From NCBI GenBank assembly GCA_019429465.1, contig JAHYIV010000008.1, positions 20,597 through 84,596 on the forward strand: 64,000 nt of DNA, in the 5' to 3' direction. The position numbers and the translations under genes are program-made. The notes under the pieces were generated by a model, which saw only the letters and a list, made by a program, of their open reading frames with translations, ran no database searches and had not been told where the DNA came from. Below, in pieces: positions 972 to 58,495 of the stretch (its first letter is position 1; every line of letters begins with the position of its first letter). This stretch comes from Desulfoarculaceae bacterium (GTDB taxonomy: Bacteria; Desulfobacterota; Desulfobulbia; Desulfobulbales; Desulfocapsaceae).

Positions 972-1453
972 ATCAAAGGACAGGAAACTTTTATAGTAAG
1001 GGCCGACAATCGGCGGAACAAGACTTTTTCCGCCGAGACTGCCAGAATATTATTGTTCATTCATTATTAAAATAACTCGTAACTTTCCAGCTTCATGCCG
1101 GGAAATTGCCAAAACATTTGTCGCGTAACTCTTACTATACGCCTTCACTACAGATCAGGCAAGAAAGATACCTCTTGCCCCCCTGCTCTTCCCCTTACCT
1201 TGATCCTTTTTCACCTTGACCTCCGAGTCCGGCACCCGGAAATATCCCTTTACAATGGCTGCTCTCCAGACGTACAAATAAATGATGGCCTCGTAAAAAG
1301 TCCGATCTCCGGCCATACCCTCTTCAGTTAAACAATCAGAGAAGCCATTGGAGGCAAGGGATTACAGCCAACAAATACTGCCTGACCCCTGCAATCATTC
1401 GAGCATAGAGGGCGTCAACAGGGCCAGGCTTCTCAAACGACAAGGAGGCGCCT

Positions 1454-27626: not shown

Positions 27627-27644
27627 GCGAACCACAGCCGAACC

Positions 27645-27719: not shown

Positions 27720-27721
27720 AA

Positions 27722-27798
27722 CCCCGAAAAACAGGATAAGTGCCTTTCGCAGATTATTTTCTTGCAAAAAAAAACAAGAAAATAATCTGTAAGGCACT
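27722..27798 (+). repeat. REP-like palindromic element, copy 3 (in tandem with copy 2)
   Basis: The hairpin is the same as in copy 2, with a diverged head (CCCCGAAAAACAGGATA). Confidence 0.9.
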
Positions 27799-27938
27799 AA
27801 ACTCCGCGGTAACGGCGTCAGATTGACGGCAAAAACGGCAGAGGAAACCGGTCATTTTCCATCCATCCGGGACCGTTGCGACAAAAACATCATGAAAGAG
27901 TGGGCATTCTTAGCGGTTCCTAAAACGGAGGTGACACC

Positions 27939-35600: not shown

Positions 35601-36056
35601 CTGAGCTCGGCCCACCTCTTCACCCTCATCTTCCAGAAAAACAGGACCCAGGCCGGCGTTTTCCACAAAAGCAACGTGACCCCCGGACTTTTGGATCTGT
35701 TCAGGGGTCGCGGTAAAGAAAGACAATACCTGTTTAAACCTTTTGCGGTCAATCCCGCGGGCCAGGGTCATCTTCTCAAATCCGGCCTTTTCCAATGAAT
35801 CAACCAGGGACAGGGCGTCCAGCTGTTCTCGCTCTTTTCTCTCAAAAATGAAGCTATCGAGAGTCGGCACCCCTTTATGAAAACCAAAACAAAGGGCATC
35901 ATACAGACGGAGAAAAACCTTCAACTCTGAATAGGCCTTCTCTACCGCCTTGACGACCTGAACACTCTGACCAGGATAAAGGCGAAGATTAGTGATTGCC
36001 TTGTTGATAGACCGTAAGACCTCAAGAGCATGCTGCTGCCGATCAATGCTTGCCAT
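32682..36056 (-). CDS. 1124-aa HEAT/ARM-like repeat protein with C-terminal cNMP-binding-like and PilZ domains
   Basis: The N-terminal roughly 800 aa are helical repeats. A cNMP-type beta-roll follows (VVQGDLHQRLVFVNKGRVKLFF...GPGDIFG). The PilZ motifs RRATER and DVSIGG are present. Confidence 0.7.
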   Translation of the reverse strand: MASIDRQQHALEVLRSINKAITNLRLYPGQSVQVVKAVEKAYSELKVFLRLYDALCFGFHKGVPTLDSFIFERKEREQLDALSLVDSLEKAGFEKMTLARGIDRKRFKQVLSFFTATPEQIQKSGGHVAFVENAGLGPVFLEDEGEEVGRAQAVVRSFADFLQQLMTAGVRQEEILFLLESNQDGQQREKMRRELDDAGKGTHTLAGAVCFVLQSIQHQGVYQSSPGFYQLLENVSAVLKDEEIRKAGTATAALLAANLDQESLALLLCQPPVTPFGEALSYALLAAIDKERFQVLVVFLRQEEARLAGLQNQSDAESRMLVAETCRYLMTTVKGRQLHAVESMGMTEKQRQSKRLQAGVSALARGSLEGLRNKEILLHLAATFERLILNKKENIAAAIIQTLVGGLKLDDNELRRRSGQGLGLVGEKLVSLDSWVWLEKLTPTFLFCLRRTEDADESCARLVAILQDILTHAQKTGREDLAEKILLLFYAIRSGALGKSAEVRERVAQVQDRGVDRTILQAYLDRCFDKPVEEMYCQKIVMHGPLGIQFLLDVLLTSKRRAERIRLLKILAGVGAAMLSSLLLERLQEPMPWYGKRNLIRLLGETGAEGDASAVQGYLSHDDLRVQSEALSCIYKIGAQQKKQYLLDALPRISEKLKFRVVLALASVVDEEVVGVLVELLEDEKYFSPDIKKTLLTSICETLGHSGSAQAQKALLLLSASGGGRPKNMDMEVRQAVQRGLVLLDASRRQKRQMHAELRKTSTNAVRQAQVMRGRPTTKVYVPVTNLTEEHDVYLLLDQNKRAAAKTLLLDLISTVACLHKFDQAELLCRRLVEIDPLALDDIIKATEMVEEQRVVRSDQGQTQNWAEVYDFLSTEEFNGLYSAMEHVHYVPDENIVVQGDLHQRLVFVNKGRVKLFFRDPRGNDILLRTVGPGDIFGVDSFFEESVWTVNAASVGTVDAFVLPREALRKWQNSFPELESKLKTFCQQLVEQDALKVMVIDRRATERLNFSARLALAILDDNGQETGTVLQSEKGDVSIGGVSATVRLSHQRSGRLLLGRKVIVRQIDGPPGTPLTAGMAGMVVAIYGQNGAGGESVTSLQYTVHVQFDHPLQEAQLAAVASGN

Positions 36057-36325
36057 AAAATACCTTGTCTGCTTTTTTCAAGCACTCCTGTTTATCCAAT
36101 GCCCCACAACCTTGCATCTATATGTCGCCATCCCTTGAGCCGAGCCAATCGCGTCCAGGGAGAATTTCTTAAAAGATGTCAACAAACAAGTAGTGTCCTT
36201 CGTGGCCCATGGACGGCTCAGTCGCTTGACACAGGGGAGGGATAAGCGCAGCCTGACCCTTTCGTTACAGCAACCGATACCATCCTGATCCAGCTGACCA
36301 CAACAGTATTTATTGTCAACAGCTT

Positions 36326-36397
36326 AGTGCCTTACAGATTCTTTTCTTGTTTTTTTCAAGAAAACAATCTGCGAAATGCACTTATCCCGTTCATCGG
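36326..36397 (-). repeat. REP-like palindromic element, copy 4 (reverse orientation)
   Basis: The sequence AGTGCCTTACAGATTCTTTTCTTGTTTTTTTCAAGAAAACAATCTGCGAAATGCACTTATCCCGTTCATCGG is the reverse complement of the family consensus. Confidence 0.85.
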
Positions 36398-36539
36398 AGT
36401 TAGATCATTACCCTTACTGGCCTACCACAGGAAAAATACAAAAGTCAAGAAATGCGGCAGATTATCTCATCCTTCAACAACAGCCGTCAATCCCTGAGAT
36501 GACCTGAGGGTCTGATGTTGATCCTGGCAGCCAAGGCCA

Positions 36540-37148
36540 TTACAATGAAACGGCAATGACACCATACTCTTCAAGCATGACCAGAAGTTCAGACAACGGC
36601 AAGCCCACCACGTTCGAATACGAGCCCATGATTTCCTTGACCAGGAAAGCACCCTGCCCCTGAATCCCGTAGGAACCAGCCTTGTCCATGGGCTCGCCGG
36701 TTGCCACATAAGCCCGGGCCACGTCCTCGGAAAACGAGCTGAAAACAACACGGGTACTCACCGACCGGACAGCAGCGATTCCGTTCCGGCGACAGGCGAG
36801 ACAGATCCCGGTCAGCACCTGATGTTCGTTCCCGGAGAGTTGCATCAGCATGGACACGGCACCGGCACGGTCTCCAGGTTTTCCAAGCACGGAATCAGCA
36901 AGACTGACCACCGTATCGGCAGCCACAATCCAGCTGTCGTGATAAAGCTCCATAACAGACCTGGCCTTTTCTGCAGCCATGCGGCGGACAAAGTCCTCCG
37001 GTGTTTCTGCCGGCAAGAGCTGTTCAACAATGTCAGCCGCATGGACACGATAGTCCAGACCAAGATCCTGAAAATAACTCTGCCTCCTGGGTGAAGATGA
37101 TGCCAGGATTAAAGGCTTAAGGGTATGATAGATTGGTCGCTGATTCAT
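36540..37148 (-). CDS. maf: Maf-like nucleoside triphosphate pyrophosphatase
   Basis: LILASSSPRR, the later DKAG.YGIQG motif (MDKAGSYGIQG), and NVVGLP are present. The start is either ATG 37148 or the ORF-track position 37187. Confidence 0.85.
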   Translation of the reverse strand: MNQRPIYHTLKPLILASSSPRRQSYFQDLGLDYRVHAADIVEQLLPAETPEDFVRRMAAEKARSVMELYHDSWIVAADTVVSLADSVLGKPGDRAGAVSMLMQLSGNEHQVLTGICLACRRNGIAAVRSVSTRVVFSSFSEDVARAYVATGEPMDKAGSYGIQGQGAFLVKEIMGSYSNVVGLPLSELLVMLEEYGVIAVSL

Positions 37149-37216
37149 CTCTGACAATGACCCTGCCCATGCCGGGACAGGTGGCAATATGTCGCTTGCT
37201 GCCCGGTGAGGCGTTA

Positions 37217-37969
37217 TCAGCCCCTGATCGCATAGCCACCATCAACGGTAATAACCTGTCCCTGAATCATCGCGGCCAGACGAGAGCAGAGAAAGATTGC
37301 CGTATCGGCCACATCGTCGGGGGTGGTAAGTCGTCCCAAAGGGGTCCGCCTCAATGCGGTTTCCAGGATCTCATCCCGATTTGGAAATTTCTTCAGGGCA
37401 TCCGTGTCCACTGCCCCGGCACTGATGGTGTTGACATTAATCCCTGCTGGCCCGAACTCCACGGCCAGGTGCCTCACCAGAGACTCAAGGGCCGCCTTTG
37501 AGGCACCCACTGTGGTATAGTTCTCAATAGCCCGGGTAGCGCCCAGACTGGAGACGGCCAGAATCCGACTGCCCCTGCCCATAAGCGGAAAACCCTTCTG
37601 TGCCAGGGTCAGCAAGGCCCTGGCGTTGATATCCATAGCCCAGTCCCAGTGACGCTCGGTAAGCTCCATGACTGGCTTCAAGACACCTGAGGCCGCATTG
37701 GAAACCAGGATATCAAGCGTGCCAAACTCCTTGCCAATAACCTCAAACATGGCGTCAACATCAGACGCTTCAGCCACATTCGCCTTTACCAGCAGACAAC
37801 GACCGCCATGCTCTGCTATAACTGCCGCCGTCTCTTCGGCATCACGTTTATGACGTACATAATTCACCACCAGGTGCACTCCATTCTCCGCCAGGCGGAT
37901 AGCGATTGCCCTGCCGATCCCACGTGAACCGCCTGTCACCAAAGCTACCTTTCCCTGTAAATCGAACAT
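37217..37969 (-). CDS. fabL: SDR-family enoyl-[acyl-carrier-protein] reductase, FabL-like
   Basis: ALVTGGSRGIGRAIAIRLAENG, NAASGVLKPVMELTERHWDW, ENYTTVGASKAALESL, and DTDALKKFPNR closely follow my recollection of Bacillus FabL. Confidence 0.6.
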   Translation of the reverse strand: MFDLQGKVALVTGGSRGIGRAIAIRLAENGVHLVVNYVRHKRDAEETAAVIAEHGGRCLLVKANVAEASDVDAMFEVIGKEFGTLDILVSNAASGVLKPVMELTERHWDWAMDINARALLTLAQKGFPLMGRGSRILAVSSLGATRAIENYTTVGASKAALESLVRHLAVEFGPAGINVNTISAGAVDTDALKKFPNRDEILETALRRTPLGRLTTPDDVADTAIFLCSRLAAMIQGQVITVDGGYAIRG

Positions 37970-38145
37970 GATACATTCCTATTAAAAAAAGATTATATTG
38001 CCCCGTCATGCCAAGTTTCATCTGGGCCGCTATAAAAAATAACAGGGCCACCCGTAAGTCAAAAACGGCGGTCACTCTTCATCCATCCATGGAGCAAGCG
38101 ACACTGGAGCATCCTGCTCAGCGTAAGGATCCGTAACGATACTTG

Positions 38146-38327
38146 TTTGATGGCGTCGTAAAAAGTCGCCAACTGCTTCGTTGCTGCAGGTAAGCGAGCT
38201 TGCGAGACTCCGAATTATCTCGTCACTGCGGCGTACTCAAGTACGCCTCATTCCTCGAAATTTGCGCGCCTCGCATTTGACGCTTTTTACTTAGCCATCC
38301 CAGAAATTGAGTTTTTACGAAATCATC
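38146..38327 (+). repeat. left copy of a 177-bp perfect inverted repeat (182 bp with 1 mismatch)
   Basis: 38146-38322 is exactly the reverse complement of 46350-46526, verified base by base. The repeat contains internal hairpins (GGCGTAC-TCAA-GTACGCC) and GTAAAAAG/CTTTTTAC boxes. Confidence 0.95.
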
Positions 38328-38382
38328 TTGCTTGAAAGAGTCTCATCATTTCGTAACGACTCCTAACCATATAAAACTATTC

Positions 38383-39318
38383 TTATTCCCGTTGCAAGGC
38401 AAGAGCTACTCGCTTCAAGGAATTAAAGACATAGCGCAGTGGCCTGAACCGTACAGGGTCCAGGATTTCCGGGGCCACAAAGCCTGATCCGAAAAAATCA
38501 GCAGGCGCCAGCAACGGGAACGCTATCCCGCAGAGCTGACACCCGGGCAGATCACGCTCTCTGGCAGCCAGCCACAAGGGACTTCTGCCAGGATCGAGCT
38601 CAAGAAGCGTCAGCATGGCGGTGTCAAGTGCCACCGAGCTCCTTGACCCGGCGACACAGCCGAGTGCCAGCGGATCTCCGTGCACGGGCCCATGCCTGTG
38701 CATCACTTCAATACCATCGGCAAGGGTGATATTTTCCGGCAGCAATCGGTCAAGGTCCAGGAGAATCCTGGCAAATTCAAGGTGCGAATCCCCATACCGC
38801 ATATGGAGCCACGACTTACGCATGCCCTTCACTATACCAAAATTATTTTTCACTGCCATACTTACATACATCTGATCATGGGCCTTGATCTTGGGCAGGT
38901 TGACCAGAAGATCACAATCAAGGGCCTCGGCGGCAACACCAATGGAGATTCCTCCGGATAAACGCCGGTGTACAACAGATGAGAATTCAACAAAGCGGAC
39001 ATCCATTCCCCGCACGGCCCGGGAAATTCCCTGACGCTCAACCGTCTTTATAGTGGAGCCAAAGGCAGGAGAGTCACCAATGAAGACCCGACAGCCATGA
39101 TCAAGAAACCAGCTTGCCACCGCCGCAACAAACCCGGCATGGGTACAGGCAAGGGGCGGAGCGCTGGCGCTGATAAGATTGGGCTTCAGTAAGACCCTGG
39201 CGCCAGGCGTGAGATGCAGGTCATCAAGACAGAGAAGAACTCGTTCAAGCACTGGTAAGAGAGACTTACGCTCATAGCCCTGGCAGCGATCAAGAGAGAC
39301 TGAGATAGATGGAAGCAT
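38383..39318 (-). CDS. DUF362 domain-containing protein
   Basis: VLLKPNLISA...THAGFVAAVASWFLDHGCRVFIGDSPAFG is typical of DUF362. I trimmed the start to ATG 39318. Confidence 0.7.
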   Translation of the reverse strand: MLPSISVSLDRCQGYERKSLLPVLERVLLCLDDLHLTPGARVLLKPNLISASAPPLACTHAGFVAAVASWFLDHGCRVFIGDSPAFGSTIKTVERQGISRAVRGMDVRFVEFSSVVHRRLSGGISIGVAAEALDCDLLVNLPKIKAHDQMYVSMAVKNNFGIVKGMRKSWLHMRYGDSHLEFARILLDLDRLLPENITLADGIEVMHRHGPVHGDPLALGCVAGSRSSVALDTAMLTLLELDPGRSPLWLAARERDLPGCQLCGIAFPLLAPADFFGSGFVAPEILDPVRFRPLRYVFNSLKRVALALQRE

Positions 39319-39361
39319 AAAGAGAGAGAGAGACAGCGAGGGACAGAAACCCTGGAAAAAG

Positions 39362-39397
39362 AAAAAGCCGGTCACACAAGAGTGTGACCGGCTTTTT
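39362..39397. terminator. perfect bidirectional terminator-like hairpin between divergent genes
   Basis: The sequence is AAAAAGCCGGTCACAC-AAGA-GTGTGACCGGCTTTTT, giving a 16-bp stem with A/T tails on both sides. Confidence 0.6.
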
Positions 39398-39684
39398 CCA
39401 GGAGAGAAGAGATATCTTACTTACTGCACATCTTGTGCCAGACACACGAAAAAAATATTTAACACACAATATCAGTGGGTTGAGGAAACATCTTACATCC
39501 GGCATCCCTGACAGGAGCCCAAAAATAGTAAAAAAACTATACTTTTCTCTGCAAAACCTATCGATGACACTCTTTTCATACAGCATATCAGATAATTAAC
39601 AGTAATAATTTTTTAAACCAACACCAAAGAGACCATCTCGCCCCAGTCAAGACTCTCCATTTCTCCCTCATATTCTCCATTTTT

Positions 39685-42063
39685 TTGTTGTTTCCAGCAA
39701 CTTCTGCTATGCTCTGGCAGACGACCTTGGCAGACGAGAGTATTTCACGATACAATATTTTATACGATACCTCTATCCCCCTTCACCCAAGAACTCACAT
39801 GGCACCCATCTCAGAATCTACCAGACACCTCCACAAGGCCCTAGGCACTCTTTATCCCTATGGCCCCCACGTCCAGCTGACAGCTCTGGCAGCGGCCCTT
39901 ATGGAAACGACCATCTTATGGCAATCACTGCCAAAGGGTATTCTTCTTTCCGGGCTGTTTTTTTATATTTGCCTTTCATCTGTTTATATTTTTTCAGTTG
40001 CATACGCGCGAAGAAGACCATCATTGAGAGTCAGCAGGACCTGTCGCCTCATGCTTCTCATCATTCTGCTGCAGGCCCTCTGCTGGGGAGGCAGCGTCTT
40101 TCTTGTCAACAATGGCACCTTGCTTGTCTACACCATCCATACACTGTTCCTCTACAGCACCTGTGTCCTCTTCACCATCTCTCTCGCCTCTGTTCCGACT
40201 ATGGCTTATTGTTTTCTCACGATCAGCCTGGGGCCCATGCTCTTCGTCCTCTTTTTCCTGGCCCCTGTCGACATAACCCCACTTACCTATTGTCTGCTGG
40301 TGCTCACCATTCTGCTGGGAGTCACCATCCGCTTCCACTCAATGACGCTTCATGCCGCCATCCGAAAGCACATCCAGGATCAACGCACCCTCCACGACCT
40401 CAAAACACGACTGCAGACATACACCGTACTCTCAGACAGTTTTTCAGCCGTCAGCGTCCTGAACGACTTCAGAATAGAACTGCAAAAATTTAGCGAACAA
40501 AAAACAACGGAAGCAATGGCCCGCAACGAAGCAATCTGGGATACGATTCTTACCATCACCAATCAGTCCCATCTCCAGGATAACTGGCACCACTGTTTCA
40601 GCGGAAAACTCGCCAACCTCTGCCGGCCCCTGGAATCCGACCGGATCTATATCGCCGAAGCAGACAAAGGAGCCAGGGAAGCGCCTACTCATTCACCAGA
40701 CAAATACCAGGCATCCATTGACCATAGCTGGATATTTAACAATTCTGACTGCGTGGCCCTCCTGAAAAAAGGAAGAATGGTCCATAACCAGTCACCCCAG
40801 TTGTCAGAGCAGCAACAAAAGGCCCTCAAGGGCCTTGGCGTCAAGGCCTTTCTCGATATCCCTATCCTGTTAAAACAGGAGCTCTGGGGAATCATAGGCA
40901 TGGAAAGGCTGACAAATGCCACCCCTTTTACCCCGCAGCAGATCAAGGGACTTCAATTTATCGCCAATATCCTGGCCATGACCATCCGCAACCAGCAGGA
41001 TCGCACAGAAAGGAACCGCCTGGCAACCGTTATAGAGCAATCAAGCGACTGCACCCTTATCACTGATCCCGCAGGCCGGATCCTGTATGCCAATCCGGCC
41101 TGTGAAACCATCACCGGCTATTCACACTCAGAACTCATGGGCACCAATATCCAAAAGCTTCATCCCGAGACCGGCAGGGACAGCAACATCTGGCAGCAGA
41201 TATCAACGGCCCTGAAGAATGGAGAAAGATGGCAGGGTCAATTTACCAATCATCGTAAAGATCACGCCCTGTATGAAGAAGAGATGCTCCTTTCACCGGC
41301 CTACGATCATGAGGGCAGAATCGCCACGCAAGTGATAGTCAAGCGCAACATCACGGAAAAAAAACGACTGGAATCGATTGTGGAGGCCGCAAACCTCATG
41401 GATAATATCGGCTTTATCTTCTCCTCCATTCGCCATGAACTGGGCAACCCGATCAACTCGATCAAGGTCTCGCTCTCGGTTCTCGACTCCAATCTGGAGC
41501 TCTACGACAAAAACAACATCAAACGTTTTATCAACCGCAGCCTTGCAGATATTGTCCGCGTTGAATATCTGCTCAAGACACTCAAGAATTTCAGTATATT
41601 TGAGCGCCCGATCATCGAAAGAACAGATATGACAACCCTGCTCAACAAGTTCATCGCCCTGATTGCCACCGATCTCCAGCGAAAAAACATCCGCCTGACC
41701 GCCGCCATCCCCAAAGAACCCAGTATCGGCATGATAGACCCCCGAGCATTTCAGCAGGTGCTGCTCAACCTTATCGCCAACGCCGCCGACGCCCTTACCG
41801 AGACTGAACAAAAAAACATCTCTCTGACTATGCTCAAAGAAGAAAACGGGCAGATCAATATCATTATCGGCGACAATGGCTGTGGAATCAGTGATGTTGA
41901 ACAGGCCAGTCTGTTCAAACCTTTTTTTACCACCAAACCGCAAGGAACCGGTCTGGGACTGGTTATTGTCAAAAAAATGCTTTCCAAGATGAACTGTTCC
42001 ATCGATATCCGCAGTAAAAGCGACAAGGGAACCAAGGTTCTTATTGTTATTCCCGGCTGTTGA
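39685..42063 (+). CDS. sensor histidine kinase (multi-TM N-terminus, GAF-like, PAS, HisKA, HATPase_c)
   Basis: The H-box is FSSIRHELGNPINSI, the N-box is LLNLIANAADAL, and the G-boxes are DNGCGI and GTGLGL. A PAS domain (ATVIEQSSDCTLITDPAGRILYANPACETITGY) and about 6 TM helices lie upstream. The start is ambiguous (TTG 39685, ATG 39708 or ATG 39799). Confidence 0.85.
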   Translation: MLFPATSAMLWQTTLADESISRYNILYDTSIPLHPRTHMAPISESTRHLHKALGTLYPYGPHVQLTALAAALMETTILWQSLPKGILLSGLFFYICLSSVYIFSVAYARRRPSLRVSRTCRLMLLIILLQALCWGGSVFLVNNGTLLVYTIHTLFLYSTCVLFTISLASVPTMAYCFLTISLGPMLFVLFFLAPVDITPLTYCLLVLTILLGVTIRFHSMTLHAAIRKHIQDQRTLHDLKTRLQTYTVLSDSFSAVSVLNDFRIELQKFSEQKTTEAMARNEAIWDTILTITNQSHLQDNWHHCFSGKLANLCRPLESDRIYIAEADKGAREAPTHSPDKYQASIDHSWIFNNSDCVALLKKGRMVHNQSPQLSEQQQKALKGLGVKAFLDIPILLKQELWGIIGMERLTNATPFTPQQIKGLQFIANILAMTIRNQQDRTERNRLATVIEQSSDCTLITDPAGRILYANPACETITGYSHSELMGTNIQKLHPETGRDSNIWQQISTALKNGERWQGQFTNHRKDHALYEEEMLLSPAYDHEGRIATQVIVKRNITEKKRLESIVEAANLMDNIGFIFSSIRHELGNPINSIKVSLSVLDSNLELYDKNNIKRFINRSLADIVRVEYLLKTLKNFSIFERPIIERTDMTTLLNKFIALIATDLQRKNIRLTAAIPKEPSIGMIDPRAFQQVLLNLIANAADALTETEQKNISLTMLKEENGQINIIIGDNGCGISDVEQASLFKPFFTTKPQGTGLGLVIVKKMLSKMNCSIDIRSKSDKGTKVLIVIPGC

Positions 42064-42246
42064 CAACTTTTTCTGGACACAGACCAACCACACATGATAG
42101 AAAGAAAAGATTCGGATACCCTTTACCCGCATCATCACTTCACGCTTCATCAGCTCAGCGGTGTGAAAGGAACAGGGGATGTCTCCTCCTTTCCTCCTGA
42201 TGACCAGTCACATCTATCACCCGGCTAAGCCGGTACGGAAACCACT

Positions 42247-43440
42247 ATGAATACCGTTCTTATTGTTGACGACGATGAAAGTTTTTTGCTCAGCCTAATC
42301 GATGGCTTCAAGTCCTACGAGGATCAATTCGGCATCATGACCGCCAATAACGGTGAAGAGGCGGTTGCCATTCTCGATGAACAGGACATCCACCTGGTCC
42401 TCACCGACCTGAAGATGCCCAAGATGGACGGGTTTGAGCTGGTCGCCCATCTCAGCTCCCATCACCCGGAGATCCCGGTCATTGTCATGACCGCCTTCGG
42501 CACACCGGAGATGGAAGAGAGCCTGAAAGAAATCGGCACCTTTCAGTATATCGAAAAGCCTATCGATTTCAAGATACTGGTCACCAAGATCCTGACAGGA
42601 CTTGAAGGGCGCTCCAAGGGCTTCATCACCGGGGTCTCTTTGAGTTCATTTCTCCAGCTGCTGGAAATGGACAAAAAAACATGCACCCTCACCGTTCGTT
42701 CCGGAAGGCATCAGGGCAATATGTATTTCAAAAACGGAGATCTTCTGGATGCCGACACCGATGATCTCTCTGGAACCGATGCCGCCTTTGAGATTGTCAG
42801 CTGGAAGAATGTGGAGATTGTCCTTGCCAACTCCTGCAATATCACGGAGCCAAAGATCTTTGACTCCCTTGGCTTTATCCTGCTTGAGGGCAGCAGGAGG
42901 CAGGACGAACGAAACACCTCTGCCACCAGTCCTGCTGTGCAAACTGATTCTGAAACCTCACCAGAGTCAACGGGCCTGACTGGCCTGGATCTGGATCTGG
43001 ATCTGGATGACCTCCTCCATGATGAAGCTTCCTTCTCAACTCCCTCCCCAGCGGTCGAGGCAGTGACAGTACCCACCACGGCCTCAAGCCACTCATCCAA
43101 CCCGGCCTTACAGCAATTTATCACCATGCTGGGAGCCATGCCCGAGATCAGCAGCTCCATTCTGGTCTCCAGAGATGGCAACGTAGTCCACGCTGACAAG
43201 GCAGGTGATGACCAGATTGTAAATTTTATCACTTATGTCTCCGTGGTCGGCCAGCAGCTGCAAGCGGCAATGGGAACCGGTGACCAGCATTACGCCCTGC
43301 TTACCATGAGCAATGGCAGCAGGCTCCTTGTTCTCTGCGGCAAGGAAGTCGTAGCCGGCCTGGAAATTGGCGCTACCGTGGCCCCGGGCCCGGTGGCTAC
43401 TGGCTTACGGCCCGTGCTCAGCAGGATCAGCCTGCAATAA
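42247..43440 (+). CDS. response regulator: REC + DUF4388/PATAN + Roadblock/LC7-like C-terminal domain
   Basis: REC domain: LIVDDDESF...LVLTDLKMPKMDG. PATAN-like domain: GVSLSSFLQLLEMDKKTCTLTVRSGRHQGNMYFKNGDLLDA. A low-complexity LDLDLDLDDL linker follows. Roadblock-like domain: MPEISSSILVSRDGNVVHA...SRLLVL. Confidence 0.7.
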   Translation: MNTVLIVDDDESFLLSLIDGFKSYEDQFGIMTANNGEEAVAILDEQDIHLVLTDLKMPKMDGFELVAHLSSHHPEIPVIVMTAFGTPEMEESLKEIGTFQYIEKPIDFKILVTKILTGLEGRSKGFITGVSLSSFLQLLEMDKKTCTLTVRSGRHQGNMYFKNGDLLDADTDDLSGTDAAFEIVSWKNVEIVLANSCNITEPKIFDSLGFILLEGSRRQDERNTSATSPAVQTDSETSPESTGLTGLDLDLDLDDLLHDEASFSTPSPAVEAVTVPTTASSHSSNPALQQFITMLGAMPEISSSILVSRDGNVVHADKAGDDQIVNFITYVSVVGQQLQAAMGTGDQHYALLTMSNGSRLLVLCGKEVVAGLEIGATVAPGPVATGLRPVLSRISLQ

Positions 43441-43576
43441 GAAGATACCGTTCGTCATTTCCAGGGCAGGATTCTTTTGTGACCACGGCTCAGGAATAAA
43501 ACATTCACTCCCCACCCCCAAAAAAAAACGCTACCCACGAAGCAACTGGGACACAGACCATAAAAGGAAATGCACC

Positions 43577-44233
43577 ATGGACTCACTCCTCAAGGAAATA
43601 AATATGCTTCCCGGAGTTTTCGGCTGCTTTATTTACACCGGGAATCAAGAGCTGGCAGCCGCAAAACTGCCACCAATATTCAAAGAAAACACCATAAAGA
43701 GCATGGGCAATCTCCTCACCCGTGCCCTTAAAATGGGCGGATTGGCCAATCTGGATCTGACGGGAATTGAGTTCAAATTCGATGTATCACTGCTCATTGT
43801 CAAGCCCCTGGAACAGGGATCTATTCTGGTCATGGTCTGTGAACCTGCCGTCAACAAATCCCTCATCAACATGACCATCTCCATGTTGATCGGGGATATT
43901 CAGGCCGCGATCAACAGAGGCCCGGAGCAGGCCCAGGTCATTGCCCAAGCACCTGCCCAGACCCAGCACGTGGCCGCTGCGGCCCCGGTAAAACAGCAGG
44001 AGGCCGATATTGACGCGACACTGGCGCCGATACTTGAAGACATCAAGGAGGCCCTGGCCTATGCCATCGGGCCCATTGCCGGACAGGTCATGAGAGACAT
44101 CATTAACACCTGGGCACAGCAGGGTCCAACTTCGAGGCAACAACTGCCAGCCCTGGCCGCACTGCTTTGCCAGGAGATCAACGACCGCGAGCTGGAAGCA
44201 GATTTCATGAGTCAGATCAAGCCCTTGTTCTGA
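43577..44233 (+). CDS. Roadblock/LC7 (MglB-like) domain protein with a C-terminal extension
   Basis: The ATG at 43577 follows AAAGGAAA. LPGVFGCFIYTGNQELAAAKLP...LLIVKPLEQGSILVMVCE fits the Roadblock pattern. I do not recognise the Ala/Gln-rich linker and C-terminal helical region. Confidence 0.6.
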   Translation: MDSLLKEINMLPGVFGCFIYTGNQELAAAKLPPIFKENTIKSMGNLLTRALKMGGLANLDLTGIEFKFDVSLLIVKPLEQGSILVMVCEPAVNKSLINMTISMLIGDIQAAINRGPEQAQVIAQAPAQTQHVAAAAPVKQQEADIDATLAPILEDIKEALAYAIGPIAGQVMRDIINTWAQQGPTSRQQLPALAALLCQEINDRELEADFMSQIKPLF

Positions 44234-44278
44234 CCGACAGATTAATCCTGCCGGTGCCGTTTTTCAACGGTGAACGGT

Positions 44279-45982
44279 CTATTGACTGACTGTTGAGCCT
44301 GTAATGACCGCGGTTTTATGCAACCGGTAGAGGCTTACCTCCCGTTCCGCTAAAAATATTATCACCCCCCGCTCACCTTCCAGACTGAGGCCAAGCTCCC
44401 GAAGACACTGCCCTGAAAAACGCAGAAAGAAACCTTTTTTAAAAAACTGATTCCTGCTGAACTTGTCGAAAACACCGGCAAGATCTGCTGCTGTCTGTTC
44501 ATAGACATCACTCCTCACCGCCAGCGGCTGTTCTTCTGCGAGTTCGACCTGGAGAAACGATGGCAGAAAACGATGGCCACAACGCAGCCAGTCATAGCGC
44601 AAAAGTTCCAGGAGTAACAAGCCGTCCTTCCTCTCCTGGATCAACTGACTGAGTATCTCCCCCATAAATTCCTGAGTGGGAGCCAGTCCAAAAAAATTCT
44701 GGTGCTGGCAGAGACGCAGGAGTTTCTGAAAAAAAGAAAACACATCCTCTTCCTTTCGCCGCAGATACGCCCACAGTGAAGGAAAATAACGATTATTGAC
44801 AAATTTTTCTACACACTCACACAACCAGTACAGTTCCTGTAAAGTGGCATGATCCATCCATTGATTGGCCAGCACCGCATAGGGAGGCTGCCTGCAGTTC
44901 GTGTACGAAAAACGCTCCGCATCCCTGCTGATCGCCGTGCCGGGCAGCAGCTTCAACAATCCCATCTGCAGATAATGAGCGCCTGTGGAAAAAAGATCAG
45001 CAAAGGAGCGACCAAAGTTCTCCCGGGTCTCATAGGGAAGACCAAGGATCAGATCGACATGGAGATGGATGGAACCAAGCGCCACTAATCTTTTGATATT
45101 CCGCAAAGCGCTTGCCAACTCGACCACGCGCCCAACGGCCTGCAGGGTTTGCTCATGGGTGGACTGTACCCCGATCTCAAACTGAAAACGGCCGACTGGC
45201 ACGGTCTGGAGAAAGGCAAACATCTCTTCCGTAAAACGATCAGGAGTGATCTCAAAATGAAACAGGGTCTCGGTCTCTGTCCCCATGAGAAACTTCCAGA
45301 TAGCCAAGGCCCGTTCCGGCCTGTCATTAAAGGTTCGATCGACAAAACGCAGCGTCGCCGGCTTATGAGACAGGATCTGGGCCAGCTCCTGCTGAACCTG
45401 GGGGAGTTCCTTGTGATAGACCCCTTTTTCTGCAGATGACAGGCAATAGGAGCAGGAAAAGGGACACCCTCTGGAGCTCTCATAATAAACAGCCCTGTCT
45501 TTCAGATGCGCACTGAAGTCCTCTTCGCGATACGGTGACAGGAGGAACCGATCCTGCATCTGCAGAAAGGACCCTCCATACACGGGCTGCAGCGCCCTTT
45601 TTTCCAGGTCCCGGTAAAAGGCCTTGTTCAGAGCCTCCATATCACCACTGACCACCGTACAGCGCACTGGAGGGAGATTGCGGCCGATGATCACGGCCTG
45701 AGGCCCACCCACCACCACCCCGCAGTCTGGCAGACAGACCTGCAGGTCCCGAATCAACTGTTCCACCCGATCGGAGTTCCAGACAGCCGCGGAAAAAAAG
45801 ATATAATCCGGACTCCCCTGACTGAGACGAAGCAGCGTTTCATAGTAGGAATCATTGATTGTCAGCTGACACAACTCGGTATCAACATCCAGACAGTTCT
45901 TCTCCAGTTCGTTACGCACATGGAACAAGGCCAGACAGGAATGGGTGAAGCGGGCATTAAGGGCCACGATTTTGATCTGCAT
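44279..45982 (-). CDS. B12-binding-domain radical SAM protein (DUF4080-type C-terminus)
   Basis: The N-terminal B12-binding-like domain is MQIKIVALNARFTHSCLAL. The radical SAM cluster motif is SSRGCPFSCSYC. I trimmed the start to ATG 45982. Confidence 0.75.
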   Translation of the reverse strand: MQIKIVALNARFTHSCLALFHVRNELEKNCLDVDTELCQLTINDSYYETLLRLSQGSPDYIFFSAAVWNSDRVEQLIRDLQVCLPDCGVVVGGPQAVIIGRNLPPVRCTVVSGDMEALNKAFYRDLEKRALQPVYGGSFLQMQDRFLLSPYREEDFSAHLKDRAVYYESSRGCPFSCSYCLSSAEKGVYHKELPQVQQELAQILSHKPATLRFVDRTFNDRPERALAIWKFLMGTETETLFHFEITPDRFTEEMFAFLQTVPVGRFQFEIGVQSTHEQTLQAVGRVVELASALRNIKRLVALGSIHLHVDLILGLPYETRENFGRSFADLFSTGAHYLQMGLLKLLPGTAISRDAERFSYTNCRQPPYAVLANQWMDHATLQELYWLCECVEKFVNNRYFPSLWAYLRRKEEDVFSFFQKLLRLCQHQNFFGLAPTQEFMGEILSQLIQERKDGLLLLELLRYDWLRCGHRFLPSFLQVELAEEQPLAVRSDVYEQTAADLAGVFDKFSRNQFFKKGFFLRFSGQCLRELGLSLEGERGVIIFLAEREVSLYRLHKTAVITGSTVSQ

Positions 45983-46014
45983 TGCAAATATCTTTGTCTT
46001 ATTTTCGTTCAGAC

Positions 46015-46194
46015 CTATTTCTGACAATCAGCCCACCAGCAGCAATCTCTCTGGACACAGGCAACAATCGCTGTTTGATAACAGGGCGTGTTCCCTTCCT
46101 TGAGCTGGATAGCCCTGATCAAATCCACTTTGCGCATCTTGGTGCCATTAATCCCCATCTCCCTTGCTATCTTTCTTATTTCTTTAACAATCAT
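46015..46194 (-). CDS. small Cys-rich protein (59 aa) with a Rho_N/SAP-like N-terminus; below the ORF-track length cutoff
   Basis: The minus strand reads GGAGG-7 nt-ATG (46194). The product is MIVKEIRKIAREMGINGTKMRKVDLIRAIQLKEGNTPCYQTAIVACVQRDCCWWADCQK, ending at TAG 46017-46015. The gene lies 32 nt upstream of, and co-directional with, the radical SAM gene. Confidence 0.6.
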   Translation of the reverse strand: MIVKEIRKIAREMGINGTKMRKVDLIRAIQLKEGNTPCYQTAIVACVQRDCCWWADCQK

Positions 46195-46344
46195 AATAAG
46201 TCCTCCGTCCTAAAGTGTTGTGATTTTTCTCGTCTGTACTCATGATCAACACGCTCACTTTTTTCAATCAAGTTTTCAACAGACAACCGCAAAAGTCAAA
46301 TGACTCAAAATGAGCGTGTATCTCAATTCTCAATCTTCAAACTT

Positions 46345-46526
46345 GATGGTTTCGTAAAAACTCAATTTCTGGGATGGCTAAGTAAAAAGCGTCAAATGCG
46401 AGGCGCGCAAATTTCGAGGAATGAGGCGTACTTGAGTACGCCGCAGTGACGAGATAATTCGGAGTCTCGCAAGCTCGCTTACCTGCAGCAACGAAGCAGT
46501 TGGCGACTTTTTACGACGCCATCAAA
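46345..46526 (-). repeat. right copy of the 177-bp perfect inverted repeat
   Basis: 46350-46526 is the exact reverse complement of 38146-38322. Confidence 0.95.
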
Positions 46527-46906
46527 CTTGATTTATCCCTGATACCGGGGCATTCATTAATAAGCTGCTCCGGATGAGTCTTAAAATGATTCCAGAAGGG
46601 ATAGGTACGACATCCGGATGGCCGCAGCGGGTAGATGGAACATTTTCTCTCTGCTCCCTGAAAAAAAATACATTCCAGTCCCAGAGCGGTAACCCGCTCC
46701 TTGCAGGAGAACCTGGTTCCGACCCGACAGAGATATTTCTCTATAAAATCAATGTGGTTCATCTGCAGGAACTCACATATCCTATTCATCTCCTGCTGAC
46801 TGACCCAGACATTACCTGATTCTCCACAGCAGCAGTTGCCCGGACAGGTCTCACAGCTACCGGGATCAAAAACAAAATCAAAACCATCCATCCTGACACT
46901 CTCCAT
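46511..46906 (-). CDS. YkgJ-family Cys-cluster (zinc/iron-chelating) protein
   Basis: CETCPGNCCCGE plus later CIFF...KCSIY...GCRTYP motifs are present. The last five codons and the stop lie inside the inverted repeat. Confidence 0.7.
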   Translation of the reverse strand: MESVRMDGFDFVFDPGSCETCPGNCCCGESGNVWVSQQEMNRICEFLQMNHIDFIEKYLCRVGTRFSCKERVTALGLECIFFQGAERKCSIYPLRPSGCRTYPFWNHFKTHPEQLINECPGIRDKSSLMAS

Positions 46907-47069
46907 TGTCCCCTGCCCTGTCGTTTACATCTGCTCTCTCTGCCCTGCTTTTTCAGCTTGAAAAGCAGATGCAGAATATACCAGAGTAAGTTATATTCAC
47001 AAAAAATATTAGTAACTATCCGGCTAGTGCGAAAACCAATACGCTGCAACTGTTCATTATACCTGAGCC

Positions 47070-47783
47070 ATGGCAACAATGTTTCACTTTATTTCATGGT
47101 TTCATCGCAAGGAGACAACAGACACAATGCTTACCACCCAGAAAAAAAAGCTGTCCACCACTCCCACGGCATTTTTCCCTTTCCGCCATCTCGTTATCTC
47201 CCTGCTGACCCTGTTAGCCGTGGCAACAACAGCGGCAGCCGATACATACGTGGTCTCCAGCGATTCTGAAATACCGGTCAGAAGTGGTCAGGGAATTGAG
47301 TACAAGATCATCTCCCTCCTGCAAAAAGGAGACACAGTAACCTCTCTTGAGGAAGATGGCTACTGGCTCAGGGTACGTACCGCCACAGGCAGAGAAGGAT
47401 GGTTGCTGAAACGATATCTGAGCACCCAACCCATTGACGACGCCTCCTCCTTTCCGACCGCCATCGGTAACGACACTGAGGAGACCAGCCCCGAAGCAGA
47501 ACCAGACACCTTCCAGTCTGAGACAGGTATCCTTCCAGAATACAGTGAGCCTCTCCAACCGGAAGAGACACGGTCTCTCCTGGCAGAGCAACAGTTGAAA
47601 GAAGCAAACAAAGAACTGGTGGAGCTCAGAGAGAAGTTGGCAGCAGTCACCCTGGAGAACAAGAAACTGCAAGAGGATGAGCTGATAAAATGGTTCCTGG
47701 CGGGAGGAGGAGTACTGATTATCGGCTGGCTACTGGGACTCATAAGCTGCAAGTCACGGAGACGGAAACCCTCACTCCTGTAG
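47070..47783 (+). CDS. bacterial SH3-domain protein (YgiM/TIGR04211-like) with coiled coil and C-terminal TM anchor
   Basis: The SH3b region is YVVSSDSEIPVRSGQGIEYKIISLLQKGDTVTSLEEDGYWLRVRTATGREGWLLKRYL. A coiled coil follows, then the TM segment WFLAGGGVLIIGWLLGLI. An alternative start is ATG 47127. Confidence 0.75.
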   Translation: MATMFHFISWFHRKETTDTMLTTQKKKLSTTPTAFFPFRHLVISLLTLLAVATTAAADTYVVSSDSEIPVRSGQGIEYKIISLLQKGDTVTSLEEDGYWLRVRTATGREGWLLKRYLSTQPIDDASSFPTAIGNDTEETSPEAEPDTFQSETGILPEYSEPLQPEETRSLLAEQQLKEANKELVELREKLAAVTLENKKLQEDELIKWFLAGGGVLIIGWLLGLISCKSRRRKPSLL

Positions 47784-47898
47784 GAGACATCTCCAAGCAA
47801 CAAGAACAGAGTTTTTTTGTTATTACGAGCCTGGATCAAGGTTAAAAAAAGGCGAAGGCAAGAAAAAAGCGAGGCCAGCAGCGGGTTAAGAGACAAAA

Positions 47899-48696
47899 TC
47901 AGGCTGCGCCAATTGCCTCGGCGACCTGGATTGCCTGTCGGCTGGAAAAAACATCATGAACCCGGACAATCGACACCCCCTGCATCACTGCCAGGGCTGA
48001 GACAACAGCTGTTGACAGATCCCGCTCTGCCACCTTGGCACCGGTGATCTCTCCAAGGAATCCCTTCCGAGAGTGAGCGAGCAGGATGGGCTGGCCCAGG
48101 ACGGAAAAAGCAGACAGATTTTTGAGAATGATCAGATTATGGGCCAAGGTCTTGCCGAAACCAATCCCGGGATCGAGGATAATGCGGCTGCAATCGATGC
48201 CCTGGCCCCGCAGCCAGGAGAGACGCTCTTTGAAGAATTCAATGATCTCGCCAACCACATCCTGATAACGAGGTTCGATCTGCATATCTTCAGGCGTCCC
48301 CTGCATGTGCATAATGACAACAGGAACCGTGCTGGCTCGCACCAGATCGATCATAGCCGGATCATGACGCAAGGCCGACACATCATTGATCATATTGGCA
48401 CCGGCGACAAGGGCCTGACGTGCGACCTCCGCCTTGCGGGTATCAATGGAGATGGGCAGGGAATATCTCTGACGAATAGCCAGAATGGCAGGAATGACCC
48501 GACGAAGCTCTTCTTCTTCGGACACCGGTTCAGCAAAAGGGCGGGTGGACTCTCCACCCACATCGAGCAGATCAGCACCGGTTGCGACCAGGGCATCAGC
48601 CTGGGCCACAGCGCTCTCCCGGGTAGAGTAACAACCACCGTCAGAAAACGAATCCGGGGTCACATTGATGATCCCCATAATCTGTACTCCAGCCAC
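47899..48696 (-). CDS. folP: dihydropteroate synthase
   Basis: GIINVTPDSFSDGG, DVGGESTRP, INDVSAL and DPGIGFGK are present. Confidence 0.95.
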   Translation of the reverse strand: MAGVQIMGIINVTPDSFSDGGCYSTRESAVAQADALVATGADLLDVGGESTRPFAEPVSEEEELRRVIPAILAIRQRYSLPISIDTRKAEVARQALVAGANMINDVSALRHDPAMIDLVRASTVPVVIMHMQGTPEDMQIEPRYQDVVGEIIEFFKERLSWLRGQGIDCSRIILDPGIGFGKTLAHNLIILKNLSAFSVLGQPILLAHSRKGFLGEITGAKVAERDLSTAVVSALAVMQGVSIVRVHDVFSSRQAIQVAEAIGAA

Positions 48697-48701
48697 TGGT
48701 T

Positions 48702-50660
48702 TTACTCCTTGCCCTCGACCAGATCAGAAGTTTTCACCCTGCCTGCTTCTTCCCCGGCGAGTTCACTCCCAGCCGTCTCATCATCAGTGACGGGTTTTTT
48801 CTCTTGTCCTTTTGTGGCCGGCTTTACCGACTGCTCCTCAACCACCGGTTCATATTGGCCGGGACGCAGTTCAGCCAGAATCCGTTCGATATCAGCAAGG
48901 ACAATGGTCTCTTTCTCCAGCAGCTCTTCTGCCATCCGGGTAAGGACATCACGATGCTCAGTCAGCAGCGACATCGTCTGGGCCGTGGCCACATCGATAA
49001 TATTCTTGACCGCCGCATCAATCTTCCGGGCCGTATCCTCGCTGAAATCACGATGCTGGGCAATCTCCCGGCCAAGGAAGATCTGTTCTTCCTTCTTGCC
49101 ATAGGTAAGCGCCCCCAGTTCATCGCTCATCCCCCACTCACAGACCATCTTCCTGGCCACATCCGTGGCCCGCTGCAGATCATTGCCGGCGCCGGTGGTG
49201 ATCTCATTAAAAACGATCTTCTCCGCAATCCGTCCGCCAAAGAGGATGGAGAGCGTATGCTCAAGAAAGGTCTTGGAATGGGTGTATCTCTCTTCGGTCG
49301 GCAACTGCATGGTCAACCCCAGGGCCCGCCCCCGGGGAATAATCGTCACCTTATGAATGGGATCGGTATCAGGCAGCAGTCTGGCAACGAGGGCATGACC
49401 GGCCTCATGGTAGGCAGTAACCTCCTTTTCCTTATCGGTAATGACCATGGAGCGCCGTTCCGCACCCATCAAAATCTTATCCTTGGCCCGATCCAGCATG
49501 TCCTTGTTAATCTTTGTGGCACTTTCCCGGGCCGCCATAAGGGCGGCTTCATTGACAAGATTCTCCAGATCAGCACCGGAAAAGCCAGGAGTTCCCCGGG
49601 CAATGACGGCCATATCGATATCTTCAGCCATGCTCTTTGTTTTGTCGCCGTAGATCTCCAGAATCTTCTGCCTCCCCTTCACATCCGGCAGCGGCACCAC
49701 CACCTGGCGGTCAAAGCGACCGGGACGGAGCAGGGCAGGATCAAGGACATCAGGTCTGTTGGTGGCGGCAATGATGATCACACCCTCATTTTTTTCAAAG
49801 CCGTCCATCTCCACCAGCAGCTGATTCAGGGTCTGTTCACGCTCATCATGACCGCCGCCTAAGCCCGCACCGCGATGACGGCCGACAGCATCGATCTCAT
49901 CAATAAAGATGATACAGGGGGCATTCTTCTTGCCCTGCTCAAACAGATCGCGGACCCGTGAGGCGCCGACACCGACAAACATCTCCACAAAATCAGAGCC
50001 GGAGATAGTGAAAAAGGGGACGTCCGCCTCACCGGCAATCGCCTTGGCCAGCAGGGTCTTGCCGGTGCCTGGCGCTCCGGCCAGCAAAACCCCTTTGGGG
50101 ATGCGTCCCCCGAGTGTAGTGAACTTCTGTGGATCCCGCAGGAAATCGATAATCTCTTCCAGCTCTTCTTTGGCCTCATCAATTCCGGCAACATCGGCAA
50201 AGGTCACATTGTTATCGCTTTTTTCCTTGAGTTTGGCCTTGTTCTTGCCAAACGACATGGCTCCCCCTTTACCGCCCATCTGCATCTGGCGCATAAAAAA
50301 GACCCAGACACCAATCAGCAGCAGCATGGGAAACCAGGAGACAAAGATCGTCATCATCCAGGAATCTTTCTGCACTTCCTTAACCGTGATATCTACCCCG
50401 TTTTTTCGCAGGATAGAGATCATCTCAGTATCATTGGCAGGAGAGATGGTCTTGAAAGGTTTTCCATCCTGAAGCATTCCTGATATGGCATTCCCGTCTA
50501 TCCCGACCCTGGTAATGGCCTTGTTCTCCACTTGGGTCATAAACTCGCCGTAGGTCAGGGTGTTCATTGAGACCGGTGGCTTATTAAAAAGATTAAAAAG
50601 CAGGATCATGGTCAAACCAATCACCAGCCACATGGATAAATTTTTATAAAAAGTATTCAA
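48702..50660 (-). CDS. ftsH: ATP-dependent zinc metalloprotease FtsH
   Basis: Walker A is [13 protein letters not shown]. The SRH motif is [19 protein letters not shown]. The zinc site is HEAGHAL. Two N-terminal TM segments are present. Confidence 0.97.
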
Positions 50661-58471: not shown

Positions 58472-58495
58472 AGCAATAAAGAATTATAATTAACC

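Follow-up and report, generated by a model that had tools for sequence, protein, structure and literature searches.

Two separate insertions of a 179-bp MITE as the very probable origin of the inverted repeats around an 8-kb gene block in a Desulfobulbaceae/Desulfocapsaceae bacterium

Two nearly identical inverted repeats on either side of 8 kb of genes raise the question of whether the genes form a mobile unit, an invertible segment, or neither. The locus studied here lies within a 64-kb stretch of DNA, referred to as the window, in which an earlier note had described a gene cassette bracketed by perfect inverted repeats and had offered three readings, namely a composite or passenger element, a segment inverted by homologous recombination, and two copies of a structured RNA gene or MITE that lie on either side of the locus by chance. 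The third reading, in its MITE form, is borne out by the terminal inverted repeats (TIRs) and 6-bp duplications that each copy possesses and by empty sites in a sister strain. Very probably, one 179-bp non-autonomous MITE has recently inserted twice, independently, on either side of core-chromosome genes, one insertion forming each arm, and the apparent cassette would be a coincidence of two insertions whose opposite orientation is incidental.

Extent of the repeat and structure of the element

The inverted repeat itself was described correctly in the earlier note. Positions 38146-38322 are the exact reverse complement of 46350-46526 (177/177 positions by sequence comparison), the enclosed interval of 38323-46349 measures 8,027 bp, and CTTG stands outside both repeats at 38142-38145 and 46527-46530. 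When mismatches are allowed, the repeat extends to 192 nt (38145-38336 / 46336-46527) at 98% identity. The exact stretch of 177 nt was rejected as the natural unit, since it is composed of 174 nt of a 179-nt element and 3 nt of similar flank (TTT/AAA). The two copies of this element, designated A and B (Table 1), are 178/179 identical, and their sole difference, T vs C at 38323, falls in the terminal 5 nt.

The TIRs of the element are 19 nt long, GATGGCGTCGTAAAAAGTC against GATGrTTTCGTAAAAACTC, with the consensus GATGG(N2)TCGTAAAAAsTC. Five TIR matches occur in the window vs 0.02 expected, and the source DNA holds two copies and one remnant within its 64 kb. A second TIR-like copy is located just inside the right end of the element, which also contains a fold-back core. 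The 179 nt are non-coding and are crossed only by chance ORFs of at most 49 aa.

Table 1. Coordinates of the element copies and of the genes between and beside them in the window.
Feature	Position	Strand	Evidence or remark
Solo remnant, third family member (left TIR + ~11 nt)	1284..1313	+	exact TIR pattern; nhmmer E = 9e-6
Left target-site duplication, copy A (TTGTTT)	38143..38148	.	sister-strain empty site
MITE copy A, 179 nt	38149..38327	+	absent from sister strain L201
Copy A left TIR, GATGGCGTCGTAAAAAGTC	38149-38167		
Copy A 24-nt mini-insert	38189-38212		
Copy A inner TIR-like repeat, TTTTTACTTAGCCATC	38284-38299		
Copy A outer right TIR	38309-38327		
Right target-site duplication, copy A (TTGCTT)	38328..38333	.	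5/6 vs left copy
Ancestral chromosomal block, outside any mobile element	38334..46338	.	Pfam; synteny
DUF362	within 38334..46338	-	Pfam
GAF-PAS-HisKA-HATPase histidine kinase	within 38334..46338	+	Pfam
REC + DUF4388 (PATAN) regulator	within 38334..46338	+	Pfam
ORF without family name	within 38334..46338	+	
B12-binding radical SAM protein with DUF4080	within 38334..46338	-	Pfam
59-aa Rho_N + Cys-rich peptide	within 38334..46338	-	Pfam
Target-site duplication, copy B (AAACTT)	46339..46344	.	sister-strain empty site
MITE copy B, 179 nt	46345..46523	-	empty site in sister strain L202
Target-site duplication, copy B, second copy (AAACTT)	46524..46529	.	
YkgJ-family CxxCxxCC gene	46511..46906	-	3' end overlaps copy B

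A search for empty sites in relatives, which the earlier note had proposed, was successful for both copies. In a sister strain with a nucleotide identity of ~97-98%, two contigs (L201 and L202) contain these genes, and both insertion sites are cleanly empty. L201 (97.4-97.9% identical) is without copy A and reads ...CCGTAACGATAC TTGTTT GAAAGAGTC... (...GATAC-TTGTTT-GAAAG...), with a single TTGTTT vs TTGTTT + 179 nt + TTGCTT in the window, while L202 (96.6-98.5% identical) is without copy B and reads ...CTCAATCTTC AAACTT GATTTATCCC... (...CTTC-AAACTT-GATTT...), with a single AAACTT vs AAACTT + 179 nt + AAACTT. The duplication of copy A is imperfect (TTGTTT / TTGCTT). Each repeat is bounded outside and inside by a 6-bp duplication of its own, so the two repeats represent separate insertion events. 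Short and non-coding, with TIRs, duplications demonstrated by empty sites and many dispersed copies, the element is a MITE.

Origin of the genes between the copies

The flank-to-flank gene order big1124-maf-fabG-DUF362-HK-RR-ORF-rSAM-...-SAPcys-CxxC-SH3-folP-ftsH is kept, with its orientation, in 7 related species-level MAGs of Desulfobulbaceae/Desulfocapsaceae (loci L006-L009, L012, L013, and L016), and other related loci are consistent with this order as far as their contigs extend. The element is absent at either junction from all seven of these MAGs, and 10 orthologous loci in other species do not contain copy A. Since both the sister strain and seven more distant genomes have this gene order without the element, the 8-kb interior is ancestral core chromosome rather than cargo and was not mobilised with the copies.

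This result bears directly on the composite or passenger transposon, according to which the repeats and the 8 kb were inserted as one unit in trans with a CTTG...CTTG duplication. The identical inverted ends and the matching 4-bp flank would suit such a unit, but the interior genes are found in the same position and orientation without repeats in the sister strain and in the seven genomes spanning both flanks, and each repeat has a 6-bp duplication of its own. CTTG does not hold as a 4-bp target duplication either, as it overlaps the flank of each copy, the true duplications are 6 bp, and the chance of ~1/256 for such a match is raised by an AANNTT-like target preference. We consider this reading extremely improbable. 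Genes bracketed by a mobile element present in two inverted copies are also seen in Tn5/Tn10-type and MITE-bounded composites; unlike in those composites, the genes here were in place before either insertion, and a separate duplication accompanies each end. The consequences for the locus are small, the genes between the repeats being ordinary and vertically inherited, and an empty-site test is needed before identical inverted repeats around genes are called a transposon.

It has also been proposed that homologous recombination between the copies flips the kinase/regulator block within the population. Two inverted sequences that are 178/179 identical and 8 kb apart are generally a plausible RecA substrate, but the block in the window has the ancestral orientation, which it shares with the sister strain and with all relatives, and every assembly compared shows this one orientation. 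Furthermore, recombinase and integrase domains are missing from every ORF in the segment and in the window, and most promoters would move with their genes, with little obvious regulatory effect of inversion. An invertible segment is thus improbable to a high degree. A site-specific switch of the Hin/Gin/Fim type was rejected, there being no dedicated recombinase in or beside the segment.

The least credible explanation, to which we attach almost no probability, is an assembly artefact in which the assembler used a single repeat at two places. Repeats often confuse short-read assemblies and several family copies are located at MAG contig ends, but the copies are distinguished by one base, their unique flanks differ on both sides, their duplications differ, and both are part of 64 kb of uninterrupted sequence collinear with that of relatives.

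With regard to gene content, Pfam supported the DUF362, kinase, REC-PATAN, B12-radical SAM, and Cys-rich assignments of the earlier note, whereas the 'Roadblock' domains had no Pfam match in the segment ORFs at the thresholds used. Exact-protein look-ups gave no match for DUF362, the CxxC protein, or the 59-aa peptide; matches were obtained for fabG and for the CxxC homologue P0001 (98% identical). The YkgJ-family gene has lost its four native 3'-terminal codons to copy B, and its final codons and stop now come from the element (...DKSSLMAS-stop vs native ...DKSSLKIEN-stop). For copy A, the present position would be upstream of the fabG promoter, within the 3' untranslated region of DUF362.

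Distribution, fold, and mobilisation of the family

The family was found across Desulfobacterota genomes when further copies were sought, as had been suggested. The TIR is present in at least 117 genome stretches, with several copies per MAG, and among the matches listed, all but one of these stretches are labelled Desulfobacterota or unresolved Deltaproteobacteria/Proteobacteria, and up to at least 15 contigs in one MAG carry family copies. The family core is present in at least 120 metagenome stretches. Copy B is 179/179 identical to a copy in the Desulfobulbaceae MAG BM506, which lies at an unrelated locus and has its own perfect duplication, AAGCAA. Exact 6-7-bp direct flanks with the consensus AANNTT were identified in 48/65 paired copies; with the comparison offset by 10 nt as a control, none of the 65 had a flank match beyond 2 bp. 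Other short elements have the TIR in common and unrelated interiors, as is expected if the ends are recognised in trans. A scan of IMG/VR for the TIR returned one match, while a metagenome scan for the window-specific subfamily with the 24-nt insert and a distant BLAST of the element against a plasmid collection returned none, and no paper turned up when the literature was searched for the TIR string.

The family core forms a hairpin in which 92.5% of cells are paired, with 188 double-change cells vs 30-50 in slid controls, and, compared with shuffled sequence, the fold of the element is modestly more favourable (z about -2.3 to -2.5). A long conserved hairpin of this kind would also be expected if the locus contained a ~180-nt structured non-coding RNA gene in two copies. 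However, the region 38000-38450 has no Rfam match at E <= 1 (at the gathering threshold, the window yields tRNA only), no promoter-like or terminator-like site is present within or beside the element, and TIRs, duplications, and empty sites show a transposon. In addition, the covarying pairs are nearly all Watson-Crick, with very few G-U intermediates, and the covariation is strand-symmetric, which points to palindromy at the DNA level. An independent RNA gene, as the earlier note had envisaged, is accordingly a highly improbable explanation. REP/BIME sequences, which are RAYT-mobilised, 20-40 nt long, and without duplications, were rejected for an element of 179 nt with TIRs and 6-bp duplications; no Y1-transposase domain was detected in the 64-kb window.

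The absence of a transposase inside the repeats, as noted previously, was confirmed for every ORF of the segment and extends to the whole window. No autonomous element or transposase with the family TIRs was found in ~1.5 Mb around ~240 copies among the matches listed, with searches that could not single out long elements. Candidate autonomous elements, defined by TIR pairs 0.6-2.6 kb apart, were rejected as two neighbouring MITEs around host genes, and ORFs beside unpaired TIRs were rejected as host genes or, at locus L090, what reads from its sequence as an Abi-like gene. Clustering of ORFs of at least 200 aa around 237 copies gave host families only.

The TIRs and duplications suggest that a DDE-type transposase may recognise the ends of the MITE and move it in trans. 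This enzyme would make a 6-bp staggered cut at AANNTT-like targets, and fill-in of the cut would yield the 6-bp duplications. The insertions would have entered intergenic DNA of a core region, and copies A and B may both derive from one active master copy. Descent from one master would account for 178/179 identity without gene conversion; of the two processes previously put forward to explain the identity, recent duplication stands and gene conversion is not needed.

A wider proposal, which we regard as unlikely, holds that the TIR GATGG(N2)TCGTAAAAAGTC defines a phylum-wide Desulfobacterota superfamily with an unrecognised transposase and, separately, that the pair in the window flips the kinase/PATAN-regulator block. 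The mobiliser of such a superfamily could possibly be a single-copy or domesticated transposase acting on hairpin or single-stranded DNA. Its members could be non-autonomous, with a ~50-bp fold-back kept by Watson-Crick-only compensatory change, and could tolerate nested 24-nt mini-inserts.

As a MITE family that is well documented and recently active in uncultured sulfate-reducing and related Desulfobacterota, these elements can serve as strain-level markers and offer a starting point in the search for their transposase. They also explain contig breaks and spurious small ORFs in Desulfobacterota MAGs.

Relation to known elements

The bacterial MITEs that have been reviewed include Correia in Neisseria, RUP in S. 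pneumoniae, ERIC in enterobacteria, and Nezha in cyanobacteria (PMC3184786, PMC10969869). The present family resembles bacterial MITEs in its size class (~100-250 bp), non-coding nature, TIRs, target-site duplications, and fold-back, as well as in its many dispersed intergenic copies, polymorphism between close strains, and occasional rewriting of gene 3' ends. It is set apart from Correia, RUP, ERIC, and Nezha by a TIR that differs in sequence and is doubled at one end, by a 6-bp AANNTT-like duplication, and by Desulfobacterota hosts, and a partner IS was not found for it in the window or around ~240 copies. Correia and RUP duplicate TA.

Chunjie, a MITE from Geobacter uraniireducens Rf4, in the passages that describe it, is 178-235 bp long with ~21-bp TIRs and a stable hairpin, has been recently active, with insertions near or within operons, is A+T-rich, and has direct repeats of 9 bp at its flanks (Chen et al. 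2008, by way of PMC3184786). Going by that description, the two families are alike as MITEs of members of the former Deltaproteobacteria with similar size, TIRs, hairpin, and recent activity, and they differ in that the 179-nt family duplicates 6 bp (sometimes 7) and is not A+T-rich. Literature on MITEs in Desulfobacter and on ISDol1 yielded nothing usable. In ISfinder, direct repeats of 6-7 bp are given for the ISNCY/ISDol1 group, which is named after Desulfococcus oleovorans. By description, a parent IS from this group would match the 179-nt family in duplication length and in host phylum, which makes the group a possible lead.

Two insertions at the arms of the inverted repeat

The exact inverted repeat described in the earlier note is present, as 38146-38322 is the reverse complement of 46350-46526 at 177/177 bases, and with mismatches a repeat finder gives 192 nt at 98% (38145-38336 / 46336-46527). 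A perfect inverted repeat of 177 nt in 64 kb cannot have arisen by chance. Each arm is a 179-nt element (copies A and B) with bounding inverted repeats of its own, GATGGCGTCGTAAAAAGTC and, at the opposite end, GAGTTTTTACGAAAyCATC, and the two copies differ at a single base, 38323.

The search for empty sites in relatives that the earlier note had proposed was run, and both sites are empty in a sister strain. Logan contig SRR22541070_1325310 (L201), retrieved by exact-protein look-up with fabG, is 97.4-97.9% identical to 35494-41114 and reads ...CCGTAACGATAC TTGTTT GAAAGAGTCTCATC...; the corresponding window sequence is TTGTTT, 179 nt and TTGCTT. Contig SRR22541070_270377 (L202), which carries P0001, the closest homologue (98% identity) of the CxxCxxCC protein encoded beside copy B, is 96.6-98.5% identical to 45566-48922 and reads ...CTCAATCTTC AAACTT GATTTATCCC..., as against AAACTT, 179 nt and AAACTT in the window. 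P0001 has the native C-terminus ...SSLKIEN; in the window, copy B provides the final three codons and stop of this gene (...SSLMAS-stop). Therefore, 185 bp was inserted on two separate occasions, with a 6-bp duplication each time, since about 2-3% divergence. The suggestion that the arms are MITE copies was thus right. The CTTG noted directly outside each arm is present at both, but it is not a 4-bp duplication: at copy A it is the tail of the left flank (C plus TTG of TTGTTT), and at copy B the tail of the copy's own duplication (CTT of AAACTT, plus G).

The genes between the copies are ancestral. With the PATAN regulator as query, orthologous loci were identified in MAGs of the Desulfobulbaceae and Desulfocapsaceae (56-82% protein identity), and tblastn with fourteen window proteins recovered a conserved order and orientation: 1124-aa cNMP/HEAT protein, maf, fabG, DUF362, kinase, regulator, ORF, rSAM, peptide, CxxCxxCC, SH3, folP and ftsH. 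This order is kept across both flanks in seven genomes (L006-L009, L012, L013 and L016), and the remaining loci agree with it up to their contig ends. None of these orthologous loci has the element at either junction, and their fabG/DUF362 and peptide/CxxC spacers are correspondingly shorter. An ancestral interior and a separate insertion event at each arm refute a composite element. It is possible that the 8-kb block inverts by homologous recombination between the copies; the assembly has the ancestral orientation. The inverted-repeat observation is confirmed, and the finding is an ordinary one.

Anatomy and distribution of the element

By every testable criterion, the element is a bacterial MITE. 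It consists of a left terminal inverted repeat (TIR), a fold-back core, an inner TIR-like repeat and an outer right TIR; the TIR pattern GATGGNNTCGTAAAAASTC occurs 5 times in the window, where 0.02 occurrences would be expected. The 24-nt insert in the core is missing from shorter relatives and from the copies in L001 and L003, which are similar in other respects. A near-identical string occurs at another position and in opposite orientation in a different subfamily (L131 4439-4464), and other family copies bear other small GC-rich hairpin inserts; these inserts may be a nested micro-element.

Features of the window (Pfam: assigned by Pfam match)
Feature	Position	Strand	Remarks
MITE copy A	38149-38327	+	179 nt
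MITE copy B	46345-46523	-	179 nt
Inner TIR-like repeat	38284-38299		TTTTTACTTAGCCATC, within copy A
Insert in fold-back core, copy A	38189-38212		24 nt, GGTAAGCGAGCTTGCGAGACTCCG
Insert in fold-back core, copy B	46460-46483		24 nt, GGTAAGCGAGCTTGCGAGACTCCG
Remnant of third MITE copy	1284-1313		30 nt
Second repeat family	8417-8496	-	
Second repeat family	27641-27721	-	
Second repeat family	27718-27803	-	
Second repeat family	36311-36405	+	
Second repeat family	58491-58571	-	
Promoter-like site	38021-37992	-	between copy A and fabG
Terminator-like hairpin	38055-38042	-	between copy A and fabG
DUF362 protein	enclosed interval		Pfam
GAF-PAS-HisKA-HATPase kinase	enclosed interval		Pfam
REC + DUF4388 (PATAN) regulator	enclosed interval		Pfam
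B12-binding radical SAM protein with DUF4080	enclosed interval		Pfam
59-aa peptide	46015-46194	-	Pfam; Rho_N/SAP-like N-terminus, Cys-rich tail (...CYQTAIVACVQRDCCWWADCQK)
ORF listed as a Roadblock protein in the earlier note	43367-44233	+	no Pfam match at E <= 1e-3

A structured RNA gene had also been proposed. In an alignment of 59 distinct cores, the core forms a long hairpin with 92.5% of cells paired (30-46% with slid partners) and 188 cells with changes on both sides (30-50 in slid controls), and 0/500 shuffles matched the observed values on four of five measures. G-U intermediates are nearly absent and the hairpin is strand-symmetric, so we read these compensatory changes as the DNA-level palindromy typical of fold-back MITEs and not as evidence of an RNA gene. 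The element has no Rfam match and no promoter-like or terminator-like site within it.

Further copies, for which a search had been suggested, are widespread. A core 30-mer matched three other MAGs. In one of them, Desulfobulbaceae BM506, a copy identical at 179/179 positions lies at an unrelated locus, flanked by a perfect AAGCAA duplication of its own. The exact 19-nt TIR matched at least 117 stretches, several in the same MAG; among the matches listed, all but one (Myxococcota) are labelled Desulfobacterota or unresolved Deltaproteobacteria/Proteobacteria; where the label is resolved, it is Desulfobacterales or Desulfobulbales in most cases and Desulfuromonadales in some. A degenerate core pattern matched at least 120 metagenome stretches. 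Core lengths form a cluster at about 125-128 nt, and those of full elements form clusters at about 150-152, 161 and 179 nt. Exact 6-7-bp direct flanks occur in 48/65 paired elements, the consensus of duplicated sites being A-A-N-N-T-T, while a 10-nt-offset control gave a flank match of more than 2 bp in 0/65. A partial relative lies at a contig end just downstream of the DUF362 orthologue of Desulfocapsa sp. Tobar13.5m-G31 (L019 75-130), the same kind of position as that of copy A. The right duplication of copy A, TTGCTT (38328-38333), differs from the empty-site TTGTTT and is the same as the duplication of the identical BM506 element (L002 flank), with the next base, G, matching too; the difference may have arisen by point mutation after the insertion or have been carried over from the donor flank.

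Mode of transposition and related families

The element combines TIRs with a duplication of fixed length and a preference for palindromic targets. These features typify cut-and-paste or copy-in transposition by a DDE transposase, and such an enzyme would act on the element in trans. As the earlier note had it, the enclosed interval holds no transposase, and neither a transposase nor other mobile-element genes were found in the 64-kb window; ORF clustering around 237 family copies returned host gene families only. Long TIR pairs at other loci were rejected as an autonomous element: they merely bracket host genes as in the window, and that geometry is therefore not rare. The ISNCY/ISDol1 group, named from a Desulfobacterales species, makes 6-7-bp duplications and is a lead as candidate source of the transposase. 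Other short elements have the same TIR around unrelated interiors, consistent with the ends being recognised in trans; one such element (...GTCATTCCGGCGAAGGCCGGAATCCAG...) lies at L145 7827-8000, L156 about 1-178, L199 about 6150-6284 and L208 2230-2358. Several MITE families appear to share one transposase specificity.

Chunjie, a MITE described from Geobacter, has 9-bp direct repeats (PMC3184786), whereas the duplications here are of 6 bp; compared by its description, it is a different element. No paper with the TIR string turned up in our literature search, and thus the family may be undescribed, although its kind is well known.

Enclosed genes and other small repeats

Pfam confirmed the DUF362, kinase, PATAN regulator, B12-rSAM and Cys-rich peptide genes previously listed for the interval; the "Roadblock" assignments had no Pfam match, and the ORF listed as a Roadblock protein is conserved throughout the relatives. 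Outside the interval, the window is housekeeping chromosome, with carAB, dnaK, grpE, cysS, trpS, murC, pntAB, tilS, glmM, cdaA and mutY. Since a terminator-like hairpin and a promoter-like site separate it from fabG, copy A probably lies within the DUF362 3' untranslated region.

The 59-aa peptide gene is directly upstream of the B12-rSAM/DUF4080 gene in this species and is conserved in every relative whose contig reaches its locus; a strongly conserved motif, TTGACTTTTGCnnnTGTCTGTTGAA, lies upstream of it (about 46272-46300). It is possible that the two genes encode a precursor-peptide/maturase pair. In relatives, a gene for a 1029-aa M1-peptidase / ChaN haem-binding / PDZ protein lies between them (L006 13857-16946, and the equivalent gap in L008, L009, L012, L013, L015 and L016); the window and the sister strain lack the gene. 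In L007, the extra DNA is on the opposite side of the peptide gene.

A second small repeat family, unrelated to the MITE, has five copies of approximately 80-86 nt in the 64 kb, including a tandem pair. Its unit is a hairpin, GTGCCTTACAGATTATTTTCTTG-T8-GCAAGAAAATAATCTGCGAAAGGCAC, followed by TTATCCCGTTCATCGGGGTT, with no clear duplication around the copies. The copy at 36315-36400 is missing from L201, and this family is therefore also polymorphic; further copies occur in L107, L028, L010, L106 and L127. Finally, in Desulfocapsa sp. N3_15 (L013, about 17230-17400), the peptide/CxxC spacer that holds copy B in the window contains an unrelated insert of approximately 160 nt with inverted-repeat ends (GGGTATGCAGTTTGCTCAAC ... 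GTTGAGCTAACTGCATACCC), and small elements may insert repeatedly in this spacer.
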